DNA of 39,751 bases from a phage, in sequence record PZ402302.1; one strand, 5' to 3'. The translations under genes were made by a program, and so were the position numbers. This document shows, piece after piece, positions 1-22,254 of this stretch (its first letter is position 1; each line of letters opens with the position of its first letter). The notes beneath the pieces were generated by a model. That model was not told the DNA's origin. It ran no database searches and was given only the letters and a program-made list of their open reading frames with translations.

Positions 1-267
1 ATGTCTGATAAAAGTTTAATTCAATTCCTTGAGATGCTGGACACTGAGATGGCTCAACGTATGCTTGCTGACTTGCAGAACGATGAACGCCGTACACCTC
101 AACTGTACAACGCAATCGGGAAACTATTAGAGCGCCACAAGTTCCAAGTCTCCAAGTTACAGCCAGACCGTAACATCCTTGGTGGACTGGCAGATGGACT
201 TCAGGAGTACCAGAACCTAGTAGGTGACGATGGTCTCACTGAAGATGAGAAGTACACGCTGAACTGA
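1..267 (+). CDS. 18: small terminase subunit / DNA maturase A (T7 gp18-like), 88 aa
   Basis: ORF starts at window pos 1 with ATG; protein MSDKSLIQFLEMLDT...LGGLADGLQEY matches recalled T7 gp18 along its length; lies between holin (window end) and spanin genes. Confidence 0.85.
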   Translation: MSDKSLIQFLEMLDTEMAQRMLADLQNDERRTPQLYNAIGKLLERHKFQVSKLQPDRNILGGLADGLQEYQNLVGDDGLTEDEKYTLN

Positions 268-810: not shown

Positions 811-1368
811 ATGTCTACTACAAACTCAAGAACCCGCACACTCTGGACCATCAATGGTCGCTCACCAGATAGCCGTGATGTGTATGATCGCAACAATATT
901 GGTCTTCGTGTTGGGCGTATCGACATCCCAGCTTCGGAGATGGTTAAGGTAGAGGGATACTCTAAGGTTGAATACGTTGTTCAACTTAGTGATGGCACCA
1001 CTGAGCAACATGCTACGTTCGAGACCCTTATGTCCACTTGGGGTGGCTCCGTCGAGTCTAAACCGGGTAGCGGGTTCATGACGGTGTTCCTGAATGAGCA
1101 AAGCACTGCGCGACTCGGTATGGTTCGAATCGACGTATACAAAGAGTGGACTGGTGCTGACCCTGAACCGGAAGGTGGTATGGCTTCCTTAGTTAGTGCA
1201 ACGCTTTCTGCGTCTGATAGTGAATTTGGTACACAGTTCGTGGATAGCGAAGGGAAGAGTGCTTCCGTTATGTTCCAACCTAGTGACATCGACGGGGCCG
1301 TATCTAAGACCGACACTATCAAGGCTCTTGAGAAGCGAATCGCTGCCTTAGAGAAATCTGCCAAGTAA
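811..1368 (+). CDS. hypothetical protein, 185 aa (no counterpart at this position in T7)
   Basis: Clean ORF with AAGGAG RBS 9 nt upstream of ATG; fills the 18.5-19 gap that is about 20 bp in T7; no Cys, S/T/G/E-rich, C-terminal heptad-like IKALEKRIAALEKSAK; function unknown. Confidence 0.75.
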   Translation: MSTTNSRTRTLWTINGRSPDSRDVYDRNNIGLRVGRIDIPASEMVKVEGYSKVEYVVQLSDGTTEQHATFETLMSTWGGSVESKPGSGFMTVFLNEQSTARLGMVRIDVYKEWTGADPEPEGGMASLVSATLSASDSEFGTQFVDSEGKSASVMFQPSDIDGAVSKTDTIKALEKRIAALEKSAK

Positions 1369-1383
1369 CAATAGGAGGCCACA

Positions 1384-3141
1384 ATGTCTACTCAAGCAAA
1401 CAAGAATGCGCTAATCATTGCGCAACTTAAGGGTGACTTCGTGGCCTTCCTGTTCGTCTTATGGAAGGCTCTGAACTTACCTAAACCAACCAAGTGTCAG
1501 ATTGATATGGCACGTACACTCGCTAATGGCGACCACAAGAAGTTTATCCTTCAGGCGTTCCGTGGTATCGGCAAGTCCTTTATCACCTGTGCGTTCGTCG
1601 TGTGGGTCTTATGGCGTGACCCTCAACTTAAGGTGCTCATCGTGTCTGCCTCCAAGGAACGTGCTGATGCTAACTCCATCTTCATCAAGAACATCATCGA
1701 CCTCCTTCCGTTCCTCTCTGAGTTAAAACCTCGACCGGGACAGCGAGACTCTGTGATTAGCTTCGACGTTGGCTTGGCTAAACCAGACCACTCACCCTCT
1801 GTGAAGTCTGTAGGTATCACTGGTCAGTTGACTGGTAGCCGTGCTGACATCATTATCGCAGATGACGTTGAGGTTCCCGGTAATAGCTCTACGAGTTCTG
1901 CCCGTGAGAAGCTCTGGACGTTGGTAACTGAGTTTGCTGCATTGCTTAAGCCACTGCCTACCTCTCGTGTTATCTACCTTGGTACACCTCAAACCGAGAT
2001 GACGCTCTACAAGGAACTTGAGGATAACAAAGGGTACAGCACAGTAATCTGGCCAGCACAGTATCCTCGTAATGATGCTGAGGCTCTCTACTATGGGGAC
2101 CGCTTGGCTCCGATGCTTAAGGCTGAATACGATGAAGGCTATGAGTTACTTCGTGGTCAACCTACTGACCCTGTTCGATTCGATATGGATGACCTCCGTG
2201 AGCGTGAACTCGAATACGGTAAAGCTGGCTACACTCTTCAGTTCATGCTTAACCCGAACCTTAGTGATGCCGAGAAGTACCCGCTACGGCTCCGTGACGC
2301 TATCGTGTGCGCAGTGGACACTGAACGTGCCCCATTGTCCTACCAGTGGTTGCCGAACCGTCAGAACCGCAATGAGGAACTTCCTAACGTGGGTCTGAAG
2401 GGTGACGACATTCACAGCTTCCATGTGTGTTCCTCTAAGACCGCTGAGTACCAGCAAAAGATTCTCGTCATTGACCCCTCTGGTCGTGGTAAGGATGAAA
2501 CAGGTTACGCAGTCCTCTACACCCTGAACGGCTACATCTACTTGATGGAGGTCGGTGGGTTCCGTGGTGGCTACGATGACCCTACCCTAGAGAAGCTCGC
2601 TAAGAAGGCCAAGCAGTGGAAGGTACAGACGGTCGTACACGAGAGTAACTTCGGTGATGGTATGTTCGGTAAGGTATTCTCTCCGGTTCTCCTGAAGCAC
2701 CACAAGTGTGCCTTAGAAGAGATTCGTGCTCGTGGCATGAAGGAGATGCGTATCTGCGATACTATCGAACCGTTGATGGGTGCACACCGCCTTATCATCC
2801 GTGACGAAGTAATCCGTGAGGACTACCAGACCGCTCGTGACCTCGATGGGAAGCATGATGTTCGCTACAGCGCGTTCTATCAGATGACCCGTATGACTCG
2901 TGAGAAGGGCGCTGTGGCACACGATGACCGACTTGATGCTATCGCATTGGGTATTGAGTTCCTTCGTGAAGGGATGCAGGTGGACTCTAAGGTTGGCGAG
3001 GAAGCTATGACCCTTGAGTTCCTTGAACACCACATGGAGAAACCTATCGTCGGTGGTGACATGGCTCGTGAGTTGGTGTCTGGAGGTGTGGACATCTACT
3101 ATGAGGATGACGGTGACGGAGAGTGCTTCATTGAGTGGTAG
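1384..3141 (+). CDS. 19: large terminase subunit / DNA maturase B (T7 gp19-like), 585 aa
   Basis: Length matches T7 gp19 (586 aa); [24 protein letters not shown]... and conserved blocks recalled from T7 gp19; RBS taggagg. Confidence 0.95.
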
Positions 3142-3228
3142 TAAATAAGTATGCGGGAAAGGTGCATAGGTAAGCACTTAGTACCGCTACGTTACCTTTG
3201 AGTAACTTACTGATATACATGAAGAAAT

Positions 3229-3251
3229 TAATACGACTCACTATTGGGAAG
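3229..3251 (+). promoter_or_regulatory. phage RNAP promoter (phiOR-like)
   Basis: taatacgactcactattgggaag; 17/17 T7-like core except T at -1; sits between gene 19 and 19.5 as phiOR does in T7. Confidence 0.85.
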
Positions 3252-3407
3252 GGCACCCTAAGACAACTTAAAGACACTTATAGACTGCATATGCAAAGTG
3301 CATACTTAGTGACTACTCTTAGAGACCCTTACAGTGTGGGATGATAGTAATTGTAATTACATCCCTACTATCAGTGTAACCATCAAGTATAACAAGGAGG
3401 ACGCTCT

Positions 3408-3563
3408 ATGCGCTTACTATCCGTGCTCAAGACACTGGCAACGCATCGAGTGACCTACAAATTTCTCGCTGTACTTGCTGCTTCCATCGGTCTCGCATCT
3501 AGTGTTGAACACATCGGTGAACTGGAGACTCTGCTTTGTTCTCTACTCACTTGTGTTCCTTAG
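3408..3563 (+). CDS. 19.5: gp19.5-like small protein, 51 aa
   Basis: ATG with RBS aaggagg; MRLLSVLKTLATHRVTYKFLAVLAASIGLASS...; last ORF before terminal repeat as in T7; hand-translated, not in ORF track (<60 aa). Confidence 0.6.
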   Translation: MRLLSVLKTLATHRVTYKFLAVLAASIGLASSVEHIGELETLLCSLLTCVP

Positions 3564-3795
3564 ACTGCTCGTTGGCGCTTAACGCGCTCTTAGTGATTAT
3601 GGTCGATATACATCTTCCCTATAATCACTGTAAGAAGTCAACTCTAAGAGGTAGCCTTATGTATTCCTTAACGGTCTACAGGGTCTCTTAGGGTCTCTCA
3701 CGTGGTCTAACCTTATGATAGCCACTCCAAGGATAACCTTATGAGAGACTTGATGTACCCCCTTTAAGAATCCTACAGAAAAATCTGAGTGGGTA

Positions 3796-3975
3796 TCTCA
3801 TAGTTCATACCAAGTGGTTTCCCCCTGTGGGTAACTCTGTGGATAACCTGAGGATAACTCTGTGGATAACTTGTGGATAACTCTAGGTTAGAGGCTGTGT
3901 GGATAACTTTGGGTGAGACTGTTAGTAACTCTGTGGATAACTCTGTGTCTCTGTGTCCCTATCTGTAAGTGACCT
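3796..3975. repeat. putative terminal repeat (single collapsed copy; concatemer junction / physical genome ends)
   Basis: Start tctcatag...ttccccctgtggg and end gtgtctctgtgtccctatctgt...acc resemble recalled first and last bases of the T7 160-bp terminal repeat; flanked by short-repeat arrays; lies between 19.5 and phiOL. Confidence 0.5.
3838..3940. repeat. array of TGTGGATAA repeats (complement of DnaA-box TTATCCACA): 5 perfect copies + 1 one-mismatch copy
   Basis: Perfect copies at 3838, 3861, 3872, 3898, 3932; tgAggataa at 3849; all same orientation, extended consensus ctgtggataact, 11-12 bp spacing for the first four. Confidence 0.8.
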
Positions 3976-4045
3976 TTGAGTTATCACCTTATGTTATCAC
4001 CTTATGACCCTTTAAGTATCACCTTATGGCTGGTTATCCTTATGT
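3976..4045. repeat. short direct-repeat array (tatcaccttatg-type) just inside the left genome end
   Basis: gttatcaccttatg x2, gtatcaccttatg, ggttatccttatg in 70 bp; related ccttatg copies also at 3655-3745 on the other side of the terminal repeat; analogous in position to T7 SRL/SRR repeats. Confidence 0.6.
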
Positions 4046-4119
4046 TAACCTTCAGTCGGTGCCTTCAGTCCATAGACCTATCGTTGCCACTCTTAGACCA
4101 GCCTTAAAGACCATACAGC

Positions 4120-4142
4120 TAATATGACTCACTATTGAGGAA
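4120..4142 (+). promoter_or_regulatory. phage RNAP promoter (phiOL-like, degenerate)
   Basis: taatatgactcactattgagg: core with C-to-T at -12 and non-GGG start; first promoter after the left end, as phiOL in T7. Confidence 0.6.
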
Positions 4143-4225
4143 TAGCTAATACTGGTCATCTTCCTTATATGGATAACTTAAAGACTACCAAAAGAGATAC
4201 TTTGAGAATTCTTTAAGATTGAGTA

Positions 4226-4254
4226 TTGACATTGATAATAGCTTATGAGACTAT
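4226..4254 (+). promoter_or_regulatory. host sigma70 early promoter candidate (A1-like)
   Basis: TTGACA at 4226-4231, 17-bp spacer, -10-like gactat/actata; upstream of gene 0.3. Confidence 0.45.
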
Positions 4255-4360
4255 AGCAACCGTTGAGAGACACAACGCTACCAACCACTAGACAAGACCG
4301 AGAGTTATCTAGTGAGGCTGAAGGGTCTCAAGTAGTCATCAACCAGACACACGAAAGTGG

Positions 4361-4389
4361 TTGACTCAACGAAAGCAATAACGTAGTAT
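4361..4389 (+). promoter_or_regulatory. host sigma70 early promoter candidate (A2-like)
   Basis: TTGACT at 4361-4366, 17-bp spacer, -10 TAGTAT at 4384-4389. Confidence 0.55.
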
Positions 4390-4450
4390 AGCAGTCGTCA
4401 ACAACTGGTCGCCCTCTGAAACAACATGAGGTGTCACGGTGAGAAAGTAG

Positions 4451-4479
4451 TTGACACGGTAACGAAAGCACGATAAGAT
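4451..4479 (+). promoter_or_regulatory. host sigma70 early promoter (A3-like)
   Basis: TTGACA 4451-4456, 17-bp spacer, -10 TAAGAT 4474-4479; downstream gatgtaccac...agtgagtcaccacactgaaaggtgatgcggtctaacgaaacctgacc nearly identical to recalled T7 A3 region. Confidence 0.7.
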
Positions 4480-4600
4480 GTACCACGAAATGACGGAACA
4501 GTGAGTCACCACACTGAAAGGTGATGCGGTCTAACGAAACCTGACCAAAGACGCTCTTTAACAATCTGGATAATAGCTCTTGAGTGTACCGTATAAGCGA

Positions 4601-4645
4601 ATAACTCAAGGTCGCACTGAAAGCGTGGCCTTTATGATATTCACT
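4601..4645 (+). promoter_or_regulatory. RNase III-type processing hairpin (R0.3-like)
   Basis: ataactcaaggtcgcactgaaagcgtggcctttatgatattcac: conserved aactcaagg...ggcctttatgat frame 25 bp upstream of gene 0.3. Confidence 0.7.
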
Positions 4646-4671
4646 TAACGAACTAACATGAGGTAACACCT

Positions 4672-5130
4672 ATGATTTTCACTAAAGAGCCTGCTAATGT
4701 CTTCTATGTACTGGTGTCAGCTTTCCGTTCCAACCTCGACGATGAGGTGAATATGAGTCGTCACCGCCACATGGTAAGCACTTTACGTGCCGCACCGGGT
4801 CTTTATGGCTCCGTTGAGTCAACCGATTTGACCGGGTGCTATCGTGAGGCAATCGCAAGCGCACCGACTGAGGAAAAAACGGTTCGTGTACGCTGCAAGG
4901 ACAAGGCGCAGGCACTCAATGTTGCACGCTTAGCTTGCAATGAGTGGGAGCAAGATTGCGTACTGGTATACAAATCACAGACTCACACGGCTGGTCTGGT
5001 GTACGCTAAAGGAATCGACGGTTACAAGGCTGAACGTCTGCCGGGTAGCTTCCAAGAAGTGCCTAAAGGCGCACCGCTTCAAGGTTGCTTTACGATTGAT
5101 GAGTTCGGTCGCCGCTGGCAAGTACAGTAA
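4672..5130 (+). CDS. 0.3: S-adenosylmethionine hydrolase/lyase (T3 gene 0.3-type SAMase; anti-restriction), 152 aa
   Basis: MIFTKEPANVFYVLVSAFRSNL...CFTIDEFGRRWQVQ matches recalled T3 0.3 SAMase almost residue for residue; first early gene after the sigma70 promoters; not Ocr-like. Confidence 0.9.
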   Translation: MIFTKEPANVFYVLVSAFRSNLDDEVNMSRHRHMVSTLRAAPGLYGSVESTDLTGCYREAIASAPTEEKTVRVRCKDKAQALNVARLACNEWEQDCVLVYKSQTHTAGLVYAKGIDGYKAERLPGSFQEVPKGAPLQGCFTIDEFGRRWQVQ

Positions 5131-5202: not shown

Positions 5203-5487
5203 ATGCGTTTAAGTAAAGATACAGCGGTGGCACTACGCTCAGCAATTGAATCCAAAGCTGCACACAACGTGGGAGGTCTTGCGGATATTGCACGGGCTTA
5301 TGAGGAGAAAGGTCTAACATTCCGTCGATTTATGTGGGACTGTTACCACGCAGTAGGCTTTCAAGAAACGACCAGAATAATCTCTGAGCACAACACGGTT
5401 ACGTTAATCGGTGGACACCTAACAGACGTGACTGATGCACACATCGAAACAATACTCAAGGTTGCGCTTAAAGATTTGCAATACTAG
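5203..5487 (+). CDS. hypothetical early protein, 94 aa
   Basis: ATG with RBS aaggaag; bracketed by RNase III-type hairpins; MRLSKDTAVALRSAIESKAAHNVGG...; no recognisable T7 0.4/0.5 similarity. Confidence 0.65.
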   Translation: MRLSKDTAVALRSAIESKAAHNVGGLADIARAYEEKGLTFRRFMWDCYHAVGFQETTRIISEHNTVTLIGGHLTDVTDAHIETILKVALKDLQY

Positions 5488-9802: not shown

Positions 9803-10360
9803 ATGTTTACTTTCATCACTTCAGTAGGCGCTCTCGTAGCAACCATTCTTGCAGCAACATACTACAACCGTTCAAAAGTATTTCTCACCAAGCTAATCAA
9901 AGAAGAGAAGAACTCTCACGCACTCAAAGAGAGACTTGAAGATGGGTGGCGAGAGAAGCAGGAACTAGCTGGTCGAATCCGTACTTTAGAGTTCGAACAA
10001 CAATATGACATGTCGAACCAACGAGAACTCATTGAGCGTCTACGCGCTGAGGCAATGGAGTACCGCAAGGAACTTAAAGAGGCAAAGAGTACCATCCGTG
10101 AGTACACATACAGTGACATCACGTCTATCAAGTTTACTGCTCACATCCCAGATGCTGGATGGAAGCGCACTGAGTTCAAGCTAGGCATAGGGTCTTGCGG
10201 CAAAGAGGTTACGTGTTTGCACTGGAAAGAACAGTCGGACAGCTACCTGCTGACGCAGACGTGCACTGATGGTGAGCGCAAAGAGTTCACCTATTATAAG
10301 AAAGACGTAGCGGGTCGCATTGAGATTGCACGTAAGGTTGCAGACAATACGACTCACTAA
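9803..10360 (+). CDS. hypothetical membrane-anchored coiled-coil protein, 185 aa (inserted between phi1.1A and phi1.1B)
   Basis: ATG with RBS aagagga; N-terminal TM helix MFTFITSVGALVATILAATYY, about 80 aa charged heptad-rich segment, C-terminal domain with 3 Cys; own promoter upstream, phi1.1B overlaps its stop. Confidence 0.8.
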   Translation: MFTFITSVGALVATILAATYYNRSKVFLTKLIKEEKNSHALKERLEDGWREKQELAGRIRTLEFEQQYDMSNQRELIERLRAEAMEYRKELKEAKSTIREYTYSDITSIKFTAHIPDAGWKRTEFKLGIGSCGKEVTCLHWKEQSDSYLLTQTCTDGERKEFTYYKKDVAGRIEIARKVADNTTH

Positions 10361-22008: not shown

Positions 22009-22254
22009 ATGTTAACCCCTATCAAGAAGTATATGGAGAACCCACAAGATATTCCTAACGTTCCTCGTGCAACTATGGAGTACCTACAGGTTCAATACAA
22101 TGCTGGATATGCTATTCAGTCAGGACTAATCAACCGATTGAAACAGGCTGGATGGTCTGAAAGCTACATCGCTGGGTTCCTCGCGGGTCTCAACTATGCG
22201 TCTCAAACTCTGGACGACATGGAGGCAATCCGTAGGGAACAGGCTGAGTCGTAA
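22009..22254 (+). CDS. 6.5: gp6.5-like protein, 81 aa
   Basis: RBS taaggag; MLTPIKKYMENPQD...; position after phi6.5. Confidence 0.65.
   Translation: MLTPIKKYMENPQDIPNVPRATMEYLQVQYNAGYAIQSGLINRLKQAGWSESYIAGFLAGLNYASQTLDDMEAIRREQAES

Follow-up and report, generated by a model that had tools for sequence, protein, structure and literature searches.

T7-like phages are textbook examples of host-independent DNA replication and packaging, and the replication and growth of T7 are regarded as independent of DnaA, the initiator protein of the host. We know of no settled function for the short repeats found inside T7-like terminal repeats (TRs). In phage lambda, cosB comprises a site (I1) for the host factor IHF, which aids terminase at the start of packaging and is helpful but dispensable. 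The closest precedent for the locus described here comes from T5-like phages, in which about eight DnaA boxes (often paired 3 bp apart) are situated in the non-coding left TR, and for which Davison proposed that membrane-bound DnaA arrests genome entry at these injection-stop boxes (bioRxiv 10.1101/866236). The in vivo binding of E. coli DnaA, as followed by ChIP-seq, is almost restricted to paired boxes with 2 or 3 bp between them: a 4-bp gap abolishes it, and 13 of the 32 genomic copies of TTATCCACA are occupied (PMC11317965). At oriC, the consensus of the high-affinity sites is TTA/TTNCACA, and gaps of 2 bp separate the low-affinity sites of the arrays (PMC6070618).

Clusters of DnaA boxes in general, and those in the TR of T5 in particular, are thus already known; what is new in the present case is their setting in a T7-like TR. 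Our search of the literature on DnaA in T7-like, Autographiviridae or Studiervirinae phages and in phage TRs (most subscription journals being outside its scope) retrieved no description of DnaA boxes in a T7-like TR, the T5 preprint being the only related account that it brought up. Here we analyse such an array in a stretch of phage DNA of 39,751 bp (sequence record PZ402302.1; hereafter, the window), and argue that it may well act as a docking module for DnaA.

Genomic context of the terminal repeat

The window is a circularly permuted genome of a Berlinvirus (Studiervirinae) in which the TR is present in one copy, and over the array region it shares 98.7% identity with Escherichia phage nasanit (Berlinvirus). 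The permutation follows from the location of the gp19 gene, which forms the right-hand end of the gene map and yet is found at 1384..3141 (Table 1). The predicted bounds of the TR are placed by homology to BA14 and A7: it begins with TCTCATAGTTCATAC and finishes with CTCTGTGTCCCT, as the annotated TR of BA14 does (NC_011040 39623-39816), and the homologous segment stands at both record ends in Shigella phage A7, phiEap-1, Kp7 and ZK1. The end sequences of T7-group TRs (TCTCATAG... to ...CTGTGTCCCT) are present, and lie between gene 19.5 and the phiOL/early promoters. Directly to the right of the TR, TATCTGT is found in each lineage examined; in all Berlinvirus TRs (box-positive and box-negative types alike) the TR is followed by ATCTGTA, which takes the place of a T7 pause signal of a class (II) reported to be intolerant of base changes for T7 RNA polymerase. 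The window's own phage promoter consensus has 6 sites in the window and 0 in shuffled sequence, and in a concatemer, transcription from the phiOR position would proceed rightwards across the TR. In this region, A+T content peaks to the right of the phiOL-type promoter (4160-4260, GC 0.25-0.30). As a strand, the TR folds worse than its shuffles (z = +1.39, i.e. no unusual secondary structure) and Rfam gave no match across 3150-4700, and on these results we rejected a structured nucleic acid or RNA at the TR. In the record closest to the window, eight spurious small genes are annotated over the non-coding repeat region.

Table 1. Features of the window around the terminal repeat
Feature	Position	Strand	Basis or remark
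Gene 18	1-267		
Terminase large subunit gp19	1384..3141	+	585-aa ORF; 94.7% identity to the annotated terminase large subunit of nasanit
Phage-RNA-polymerase promoter, phiOR position	3230..3250	+	fits the window's own phage promoter consensus
Gene 19.5-like ORF	3408-3563		
CCTTATG-type units left of the TR	about 3652-3747		repeat-family analysis
Terminal repeat (TR), 165 bp	3796..3960	+	homology to annotated relatives
Conserved TR left-end segment	3796..3825	+	common to DnaA-type and BA14-type TRs (alignment)
Core run of five same-orientation DnaA-type sites	3826..3880	+	starts (match) 3826 (8/9), 3838 (9/9), 3849 (8/9), 3861 (9/9), 3872 (9/9)
Distal part of the array	3881..3940	+	perfect boxes at 3898 and 3932 among degenerate units CTCTAGGTTAGAGG, CTTTGGGTGAGAC, TGTTAGTAA
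Conserved TR right-end segment CTCTGTGTCTCTGTGTCCCT	3941..3960	+	common to BA14-type TRs and T7
ATCTGTA	3961..3967	+	position of the T7 concatemer-junction class II pause signal ATCTGTT; one mismatch
Flanking short-repeat array, CACCTTATG type	3970..4052	+	equivalent of T7 SRL; repeat families and Tandem Repeats Finder
Phage-RNA-polymerase promoter, phiOL position	4121..4141	+	window promoter consensus
Sigma-70-type early promoters	about 4360-4480		
Gene 0.3-type SAM hydrolase	4672-5130		
Kinase, then RNA polymerase	right of the SAM hydrolase gene		

A tandem array of DnaA boxes

The array occupies the interior of the TR (3826-3940). Five exact copies of the 9-mer TGTGGATAA (the reverse complement of TTATCCACA, the DnaA box of highest affinity) are found there, each on the + strand (3838-3846, 3861-3869, 3872-3880, 3898-3906 and 3932-3940), with no sixth exact copy anywhere in the 39,751-bp window; dinucleotide-preserving shuffles contain 0.31 copies on average and never more than 2. 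Two more copies deviate by a single mismatch (8/9), namely TGTGGGTAA at 3826 and TGAGGATAA at 3849, so that the array reads ccc TGTGGGTAA ctc TGTGGATAA cc TGAGGATAA ctc TGTGGATAA ct TGTGGATAA ctctaggttagaggctg TGTGGATAA ctttgggtgagactgttagtaactc TGTGGATAA ctctgtgtctctgtgtccct, with start-to-start distances (seven sites, from 3826 onwards) of 12, 11, 12, 11, 26 and 34 bp. The relaxed consensus TTWTNCACA retrieves only the five exact boxes in the window and no further match, and Tandem Repeats Finder reports a 12-bp unit (CTGTGGATAACT) repeated 10.4 times over 3825-3947. Since the box copies are tandem repeats, they do not represent five independent events; the relevant chance is that of a 12-bp unit which happens to include the 9-mer (about 24 registers in 262,144, i.e. 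about 1e-4). The degenerate units of the distal part (CTCTAGGTTAGAGG, CTTTGGGTGAGAC and TGTTAGTAA) resemble short repeats in other T7-group TRs.

The original prediction had described five exact copies and one with a single mismatch, in one orientation over 103 bp (3838-3940) of a putative TR, the first four of them 11-12 bp apart. Its counts, orientation, phasing and placement inside the TR are all reproduced here (the mismatched copy being the one at 3849), as is the enrichment over shuffled sequence that it led us to expect; of its range, the part that stands is the position of the five boxes, while the array itself extends one unit further to the left, to the 8/9 site at 3826.

As the gaps between the sites at 3826, 3838, 3849, 3861 and 3872 amount to 3, 2, 3 and 2 bp, the core run forms four overlapping double DnaA boxes; phages P483 and A7 have runs of six sites at double-box spacing. 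The flanks are likewise of the oriC kind. At oriC, R1 has the sequence CCTGTGGATAAC, and R4 reads CTGTGGATAACTCTGTC as its reverse complement; the phage 11-mer CTGTGGATAAC is identical to R1, and the phage 16-mer CTGTGGATAACTCTGT (3931-3946) is identical to R4 together with its flank (the oriC reference sequence matches 5,425 of 5,426 E. coli genomes, between mnmG and mioC). In the variants TGTGGGTAA, TGAGGATAA and TATGGATAA, the changes miss the positions at which DnaA is tolerant (N5, W3). No A+T-rich unwinding element was found within 150 bp of the array (GC of at least 0.325 in all 40-bp windows), and the IHF consensus WATCAANNNNTTR matches the window at 22128 and 27200 only, neither of them near the TR. 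Judged by its sequence, flanks, orientation and spacing, the array fits what cooperative binding of DnaA is known to require, and we are highly confident that DnaA would bind this DNA tightly in vitro.

Distribution among T7-like phages

In an unbiased sample of IMG/VR, made up of the 80 closest gp19-encoding loci, 67 distinct Studiervirinae TRs were recognisable. Sites matching at least 7 of the 9 positions are missing from 55 of these TRs, 10 TRs have a single 7/9 site, and two (P483 and A7) have nine; the exact box is absent from 65 of the 67, and present four or five times in the other two. As there are no TRs intermediate between those with 0-1 and those with nine sites, we consider the array to be a discrete cassette rather than a product of drift in T7-type units, and on this bimodality we reject a gradual origin from such units. 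Within Berlinvirus, TRs with the array (TGTGGATAAC) are those of the window, nasanit, P483, A7 and vB_SEqdws-315, whereas those of BA14, Berlin, ErnstBeyeler, CarlSpitteler and DS_BP2 are box-negative and contain unrelated units phased at ~11 bp (e.g. CTTATGGTAAC in BA14 and CTTTAGGTGTAC in Berlin). Both types share ~30 bp at the left end of the TR and ~20 bp at its right end. The TR of T7 has only short repeats of its own (CCTTGGGTT) and no DnaA box, as the original prediction held, and its view that a phased cluster of consensus boxes would be unexpected at this place agrees with the 65 related TRs that have none.

Outside Berlinvirus, a C-TGTGGATAA-C unit in the same orientation recurs in the TRs of Enterobacter phage NJ2, of phiEap-1 (an Eapunavirus, in which five perfect boxes alternate with T7-type units), of a minority of Klebsiella Przondovirus, and of about 20 Klebsiella/Proteus Molineuxvirinae, the TRs of which (TCTCGGCCTCGGCC...) are otherwise unalignable with those of Studiervirinae. 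Scans of viral contigs for tandem boxes and for TCTCGGCCTCGGCC were unspecific and still yielded additional Molineuxvirinae TRs, as well as one SP6-like contig with the Molineuxvirinae TR frame and no box. Whatever the lineage, 15-20 bp separate the last box from the right TR boundary/TATCTGT, while the distance between the left TR end and the array varies from 30 bp (as in the window) to about 118 bp. Blastn of the cassette gave no match in 5,426 E. coli genomes, and that of the TR against plasmids matched only small endosymbiont plasmids; with E. coli devoid of matches and the plasmid matches limited to endosymbiont DnaA-box arrays, we reject a bacterial origin of the cassette.

That the array recurs in several lineages need not point to independent selection, as recombination may have carried a single cassette between them. 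Close relatives with ~95% identical terminases grow without any box, so that the module is dispensable, and its place can be taken by other repeats. With respect to the conservation of the 9-mer in related TRs (which the original prediction had put forward as informative), it is kept in some lineages, and sister Berlinviruses have unrelated, non-DnaA repeats at the same position, which implies that DnaA binding is not essential for TR function in the genus and is, in one sense, an outcome that the original prediction had named as refuting it. In other respects the DnaA reading of the original prediction has gained strength, through the 2-3 bp gaps, the R1- and R4-identical flanks and the recurrence in distant phages.

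Linkage to phage proteins and conservation of the boxes

We compared the terminases of four box-positive and three box-negative Berlinviruses. Neither gp18 (93-97% identity) nor gp19 (93-99%) groups by TR type across these phages, and the gp18 of A7 (box-positive) is 96.6% identical to that of box-negative ErnstBeyeler versus 93.2% to that of the window. Repeats recognised by terminase (of the pac or cosB type), which the original prediction had entertained as an alternative, are disfavoured by this lack of co-variation of gp18 and gp19 with the TR type. A presence/absence comparison of all ORFs (window, A7 and P483 versus ErnstBeyeler and CarlSpitteler) disclosed no box-specific gene, apart from a pseudo-ORF that spans the array and from alternative frames inside conserved genes; a phage DNA-binding protein or iteron initiator linked to the cassette was rejected, as this comparison of five genomes brought none to light. 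Furthermore, a homologue of the RecBCD inhibitor gp5.9 is absent from the window, A7 and P483 and also from box-negative CarlSpitteler, and Chi is enriched in all five genomes, whatever the TR type; a link to RecBCD evasion was rejected, since neither Chi enrichment nor the absence of gp5.9 follows the boxes.

In an alignment of seven Molineuxvirinae TRs (from which the fetch anchor used for some of the sequences was left out), none of the 45 columns within boxes is variable, as compared to 46 of the 176 elsewhere (Fisher test, 8e-6), a contrast to be read with the caveat that repeat alignment favours box columns; counted by cells, the same TRs differ at 0 of 303 box positions and at 75 of 1,189 others. 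In four Berlinvirus TRs the proportions of variable columns (5/54 in boxes, 16/127 in spacers) do not differ significantly, and among five related TRs of this group no change is seen in the boxes at 3872, 3898 and 3932, whereas the proximal sites vary. These alignments indicate constraint on the boxes in one lineage at least. Tandem copies can also stay alike through slippage and gene conversion, with no selection involved; on the whole, we consider it slightly more probable than not that selection for DnaA binding maintains the array.

A candidate docking module for DnaA

Taken together, these observations suggest that the TR interior (3826-3940) serves the host initiator DnaA as a docking module, a reading to which we would assign a probability of about 0.55. 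Cooperative assembly of DnaA would start from the five adjacent same-orientation sites with their 2-3 bp gaps, along with the two additional perfect boxes, and would give an oligomer on the double-stranded TR both at the genome ends and at all junctions of a concatemer; sister phages fill the same TR frame with unrelated phased repeats. Occupancy by DnaA in infected cells and a benefit to the phage are what we infer from the sequence. Against the reading stand the DnaA-independent growth of T7, the supply of the protein (~1-2 thousand molecules of DnaA per cell, which late in infection would be roughly stoichiometric at best with the phage sites), the box-less close relatives, the lack of an unwinding element or IHF site beside the array, and variants that fall outside the tolerant positions.

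The candidate roles named in the original prediction (titration, end protection, tethering) would look alike at the level of sequence. As for the use to which docked DnaA might be put, it could be an architectural host cofactor near the right TR boundary and the pause/cut site, where junction processing and packaging begin, in a role comparable to that of IHF at lambda cosB, with the interleaved T7-type units as sites for phage proteins. Our preference for this role, which we put forward tentatively and rate as less likely than not, comes from the unchanging spacing to the right TR boundary and from the T7-type units interspersed among the boxes. It is possible, if on balance doubtful, that the interiors of T7-supergroup TRs are, more generally, exchangeable cassettes for host factors, of which the DnaA type would recruit DnaA as a cofactor of packaging, junction processing or entry holding.

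Alternatively, the array may act on the leading end, with membrane-associated DnaA holding or shielding the entering left TR until transcription draws in the rest of the genome. Such a role would have a parallel in the left-TR boxes of T5-like phages and in Davison's entry-arrest model (bioRxiv 10.1101/866236), a model that is itself only a proposal. It would suit the position of the array, 30 bp from the inferred left end and hence in the first DNA to enter the cell, the start of infection as the only time at which DnaA would exceed its sites, and the lack of a gp5.9 homologue in the window, A7 and P483; CarlSpitteler, however, lacks both gp5.9 and the boxes, so that the two do not correlate. 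Moreover, it is the distance to the left end that varies (30 to about 118 bp) and that to the right boundary that is constant, the initial ~850-bp entry of T7 is attributed to ejected core proteins and not to a DNA signal, and RecBCD readily displaces bound proteins. On this evidence we regard leading-end capture as unlikely.

The array could also be no more than this lineage's version of the T7-type phased repeats (read loosely in packaging by gp18/gp19, or needed only as phased or bent DNA), homogenised by concerted evolution and matching the DnaA box by coincidence. Short repeats phased at roughly 11 bp occupy the same frame in every T7-group TR examined, the units of BA14, Berlin and T7 have a GG..TA(A)C skeleton in common with CTGTGGATAAC, copy numbers shift by whole units, and the Berlinvirus boxes are no better conserved than their spacers. 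Part of the pattern could stem from concerted evolution and from one cassette passed on through recombination. A coincidence is nonetheless difficult to reconcile with the gulf between TRs with 0-1 weak sites and those with nine, with an exact 9-mer and oriC-type flanks kept in TR backgrounds that are otherwise unalignable, with box columns that are invariant in Molineuxvirinae while the rest drifts, with terminase subunits that do not co-vary with the unit type, and with a prior of about 1e-4 for the 9-mer in a 12-bp unit; we rate it as less likely still than leading-end capture.

A DnaA-dependent auxiliary origin or primosome-loading site at the genome ends, at which DnaA would open the DNA for helicase loading, is very improbable. 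In its favour, tandem arrays of 11-12 bp period are the sole origin-like element on Rep-less Buchnera and Baumannia plasmids, the T7-like primase-helicase and polymerase genes of distant uncultivated phages have arrays of DnaA boxes within a few kb, and a phiOL-type promoter with an A+T-rich stretch is found 180-320 bp to the right; against it, no unwinding element lies within 150 bp on either side (minimum GC 0.325), there is no IHF site, the strand is unstructured (z = +1.39), sister phages do without boxes, and replication of the T7 type starts at phage-RNA-polymerase promoters and uses the phage gp4 helicase.

Returning to the docking module, an array inside a repeat predicted to cap both ends of the genome, with kin in distant relatives, suggests that T7-like phages may employ a host protein at their ends in a way not described before: an oriC-grade, swappable module points to a concrete host-phage interaction there, and is located in the first-entering DNA and beside the concatemer cut site. 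If the reading is correct, DnaA would join the host factors of T7-like phages, and a mechanistic tie to the unexplained boxes in the T5 TR would be established. The sister phages (~95% identical terminases, non-DnaA interior) are natural matched controls, by which a clean swap becomes feasible; TGTCCATAA is an example of a mutated form of the box TGTGGATAA. TR modules matter, furthermore, to phage engineering, to the design of packaging signals and to annotation.

Comparison with known systems

The phage array resembles oriC in the consensus 9-mer and its immediate flanks (GTTATCCACAG), in having one orientation per array, in its 2-3 bp gaps and in the placement of strong sites beside weaker ones. 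It differs by having five exact boxes in 103 bp (as compared to two in the 277-bp oriC segment), by its single orientation (oriC consists of two opposed arrays), and by lying in a TR without an adjoining A+T-rich unwinding element or IHF site.

The endosymbiont plasmids are close in sequence. Buchnera pTrp (2.8 kb; trpE, trpG and no rep gene) has 8 copies of CTGTGCATAACT, which differs from the phage unit CTGTGGATAACT only at the free N of the DnaA consensus, and a Baumannia plasmid has 6 copies of TGTGGATAACA, so that in both the 6-8 copies stand head to tail at an 11-12 bp period. As tandem arrays are the only plausible origin of these Rep-less plasmids, they presumably function as origins. 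The plasmid arrays are, however, perfect and embedded in very A+T-rich DNA, whereas that of the phage is imperfect and not beside A+T-rich DNA, and they belong to replicons without a Rep gene, whereas the phage genome has a replisome of its own. Unrelated viral contigs, too, often have DnaA boxes in tandem, and three of these contigs encode T7-like primase-helicase homologues (two of them together with a T7-like DNA polymerase homologue).

With the short repeats of the T7 group (T7 TR interior, SRL and SRR), the array shares the location between the TR ends, the ~11-12 bp phasing, the neighbouring ATCTGT pause-type signal and some interleaved units of the T7 type; what sets it apart is a unit that is a DnaA consensus, of which 65 of the 67 related TRs have no site. 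The likeness to lambda cosB would be functional only (a site for a host protein among short repeats beside the terminase cut, on the side packaged first), as the host protein is a different one and there is no sequence relationship.

The T5 TR likewise has consensus or near-consensus boxes, often 3 bp apart and conserved across relatives, in a non-coding TR of a virulent coliphage with stepwise genome entry, and in both cases the function is putative. In T5, the box pairs lie inside large inverted repeats, several kb from the end and within a roughly 10-kb TR, whereas in the phage described here only direct tandem units (and no inverted-repeat pair around the boxes, as in the IRC/IRD arrangement of T5) were found, in a run that fills a 165-bp TR and starts 30 bp from its end. 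Moreover, the two phages belong to unrelated families with different packaging and entry machineries, and the module analysed here is present in a minority of relatives.

Coding content and ancestry of the genome end

The large terminase subunit of the window was found to share 93-95% identity, about evenly, with all six compared Berlinviruses, which show 96-99.5% mutual identity for this protein. Given that the gene is divergent and yet the non-coding region adjoining it is 98.7% identical to that of Escherichia phage nasanit, the sequence comparison suggests a mosaic ancestry around the window's genome end. In nasanit (PV245933; the closest public record), eight small CDS labelled 'hypothetical protein' (locus L001, 3035-4240, corresponding to about 3330-4540 in the window) stretch across the non-coding region of the terminal repeat (TR), short repeats and promoter; they are almost certainly annotation artefacts. 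The 185-aa ORF neighbouring the terminase gene had no match in Pfam, and its patchy occurrence across four relatives (found in P483 and CarlSpitteler, missing from A7 and ErnstBeyeler) makes it look like an optional insert. For the 94-aa ORF, neither a Pfam match nor a tblastn homologue in A7, P483, ErnstBeyeler or CarlSpitteler was recovered.

Locations of the features discussed, in the window and on two endosymbiont plasmids
Feature	Replicon	Position	Strand	Description
ORF, 185 aa	Window	811..1368		Between spanin and terminase genes
Terminase large subunit	Window	1384..3141		
Post-TR signal	Window	3961-3967		ATCTGTA
Short-repeat array	Window	3970-4052		Immediately right of TR
ORF, 94 aa	Window	5203..5487		Early region
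ORF, 185 aa	Window	9803..10360		Pfam Phage_T3_1_05 (T3 gene 1.05) match
Chi	Window	11677, 22707, 26486, 29809, 34518, 39205	+	GCTGGTGG
Chi	Window	30153	-	GCTGGTGG
DnaA-box array	Buchnera aphidicola pTrp NZ_LT635895 (L395)	1400-1500		8 x CTGTGCATAACT
DnaA-box array	Baumannia plasmid NZ_CP011788 (L396)	67-130		6 x TGTGGATAACA

Chi sites and RecBCD

Chi was observed to be both enriched and strand-biased in the window, the gene-sense strand carrying 6 copies and the opposite one 1 (shuffled sequences, both strands pooled: mean 1.42, maximum 4), in the orientation read by a RecBCD enzyme coming in at the right end of the genome. Since the same skew recurs in relatives with DnaA boxes in the TR (A7 5/2, P483 4/2) and in those devoid of them (ErnstBeyeler 9/2, CarlSpitteler 8/1), the bias is a general Berlinvirus trait, independent of TR type. 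Among these five genomes, a homologue of the RecBCD inhibitor gp5.9 was present in ErnstBeyeler only.

Repeats and putative pause signal beside the TR

The short-repeat array, equivalent to the T7 SRL, is highly variable in copy number: just about two 13-bp copies are found in the window, and some relatives (vB_SEqdws-315, L128 120-240; CarlSpitteler, L183 4230-4330) have an expanded array of at least four tandem copies, each perfect and 26-27 bp long. The post-TR signal ATCTGTA occupies the same place in all Berlinvirus TRs (loci L002-L005 and L182-L184); the class II consensus of T7 is ATCTGTT, in which T7 RNA polymerase reportedly tolerates no base change. Either the Berlinvirus polymerase uses another pause signal, or it pauses more weakly at ATCTGTA.

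DnaA-box arrays on viral contigs and endosymbiont plasmids

Dense arrays of 5-8 DnaA boxes, in which TGTGGATAA is intermixed with TTATGCACA-type variants, were also observed on uncultivated viral contigs (IMG/VR: L105, L106, L121, L030, L041 and L119). A few kb away from the array, three of these (L105, L106 and L121) encode proteins homologous to the T7 primase-helicase, with 32-34% identity, and two of the three (L105 and L106) additionally encode a homologue of a T7-like DNA polymerase, with 25-33% identity. Perfect tandem arrays are furthermore found on small plasmids of endosymbionts (Buchnera and Baumannia) that lack a rep gene; the repeat unit of these arrays is almost identical to that of the phage array in the window.
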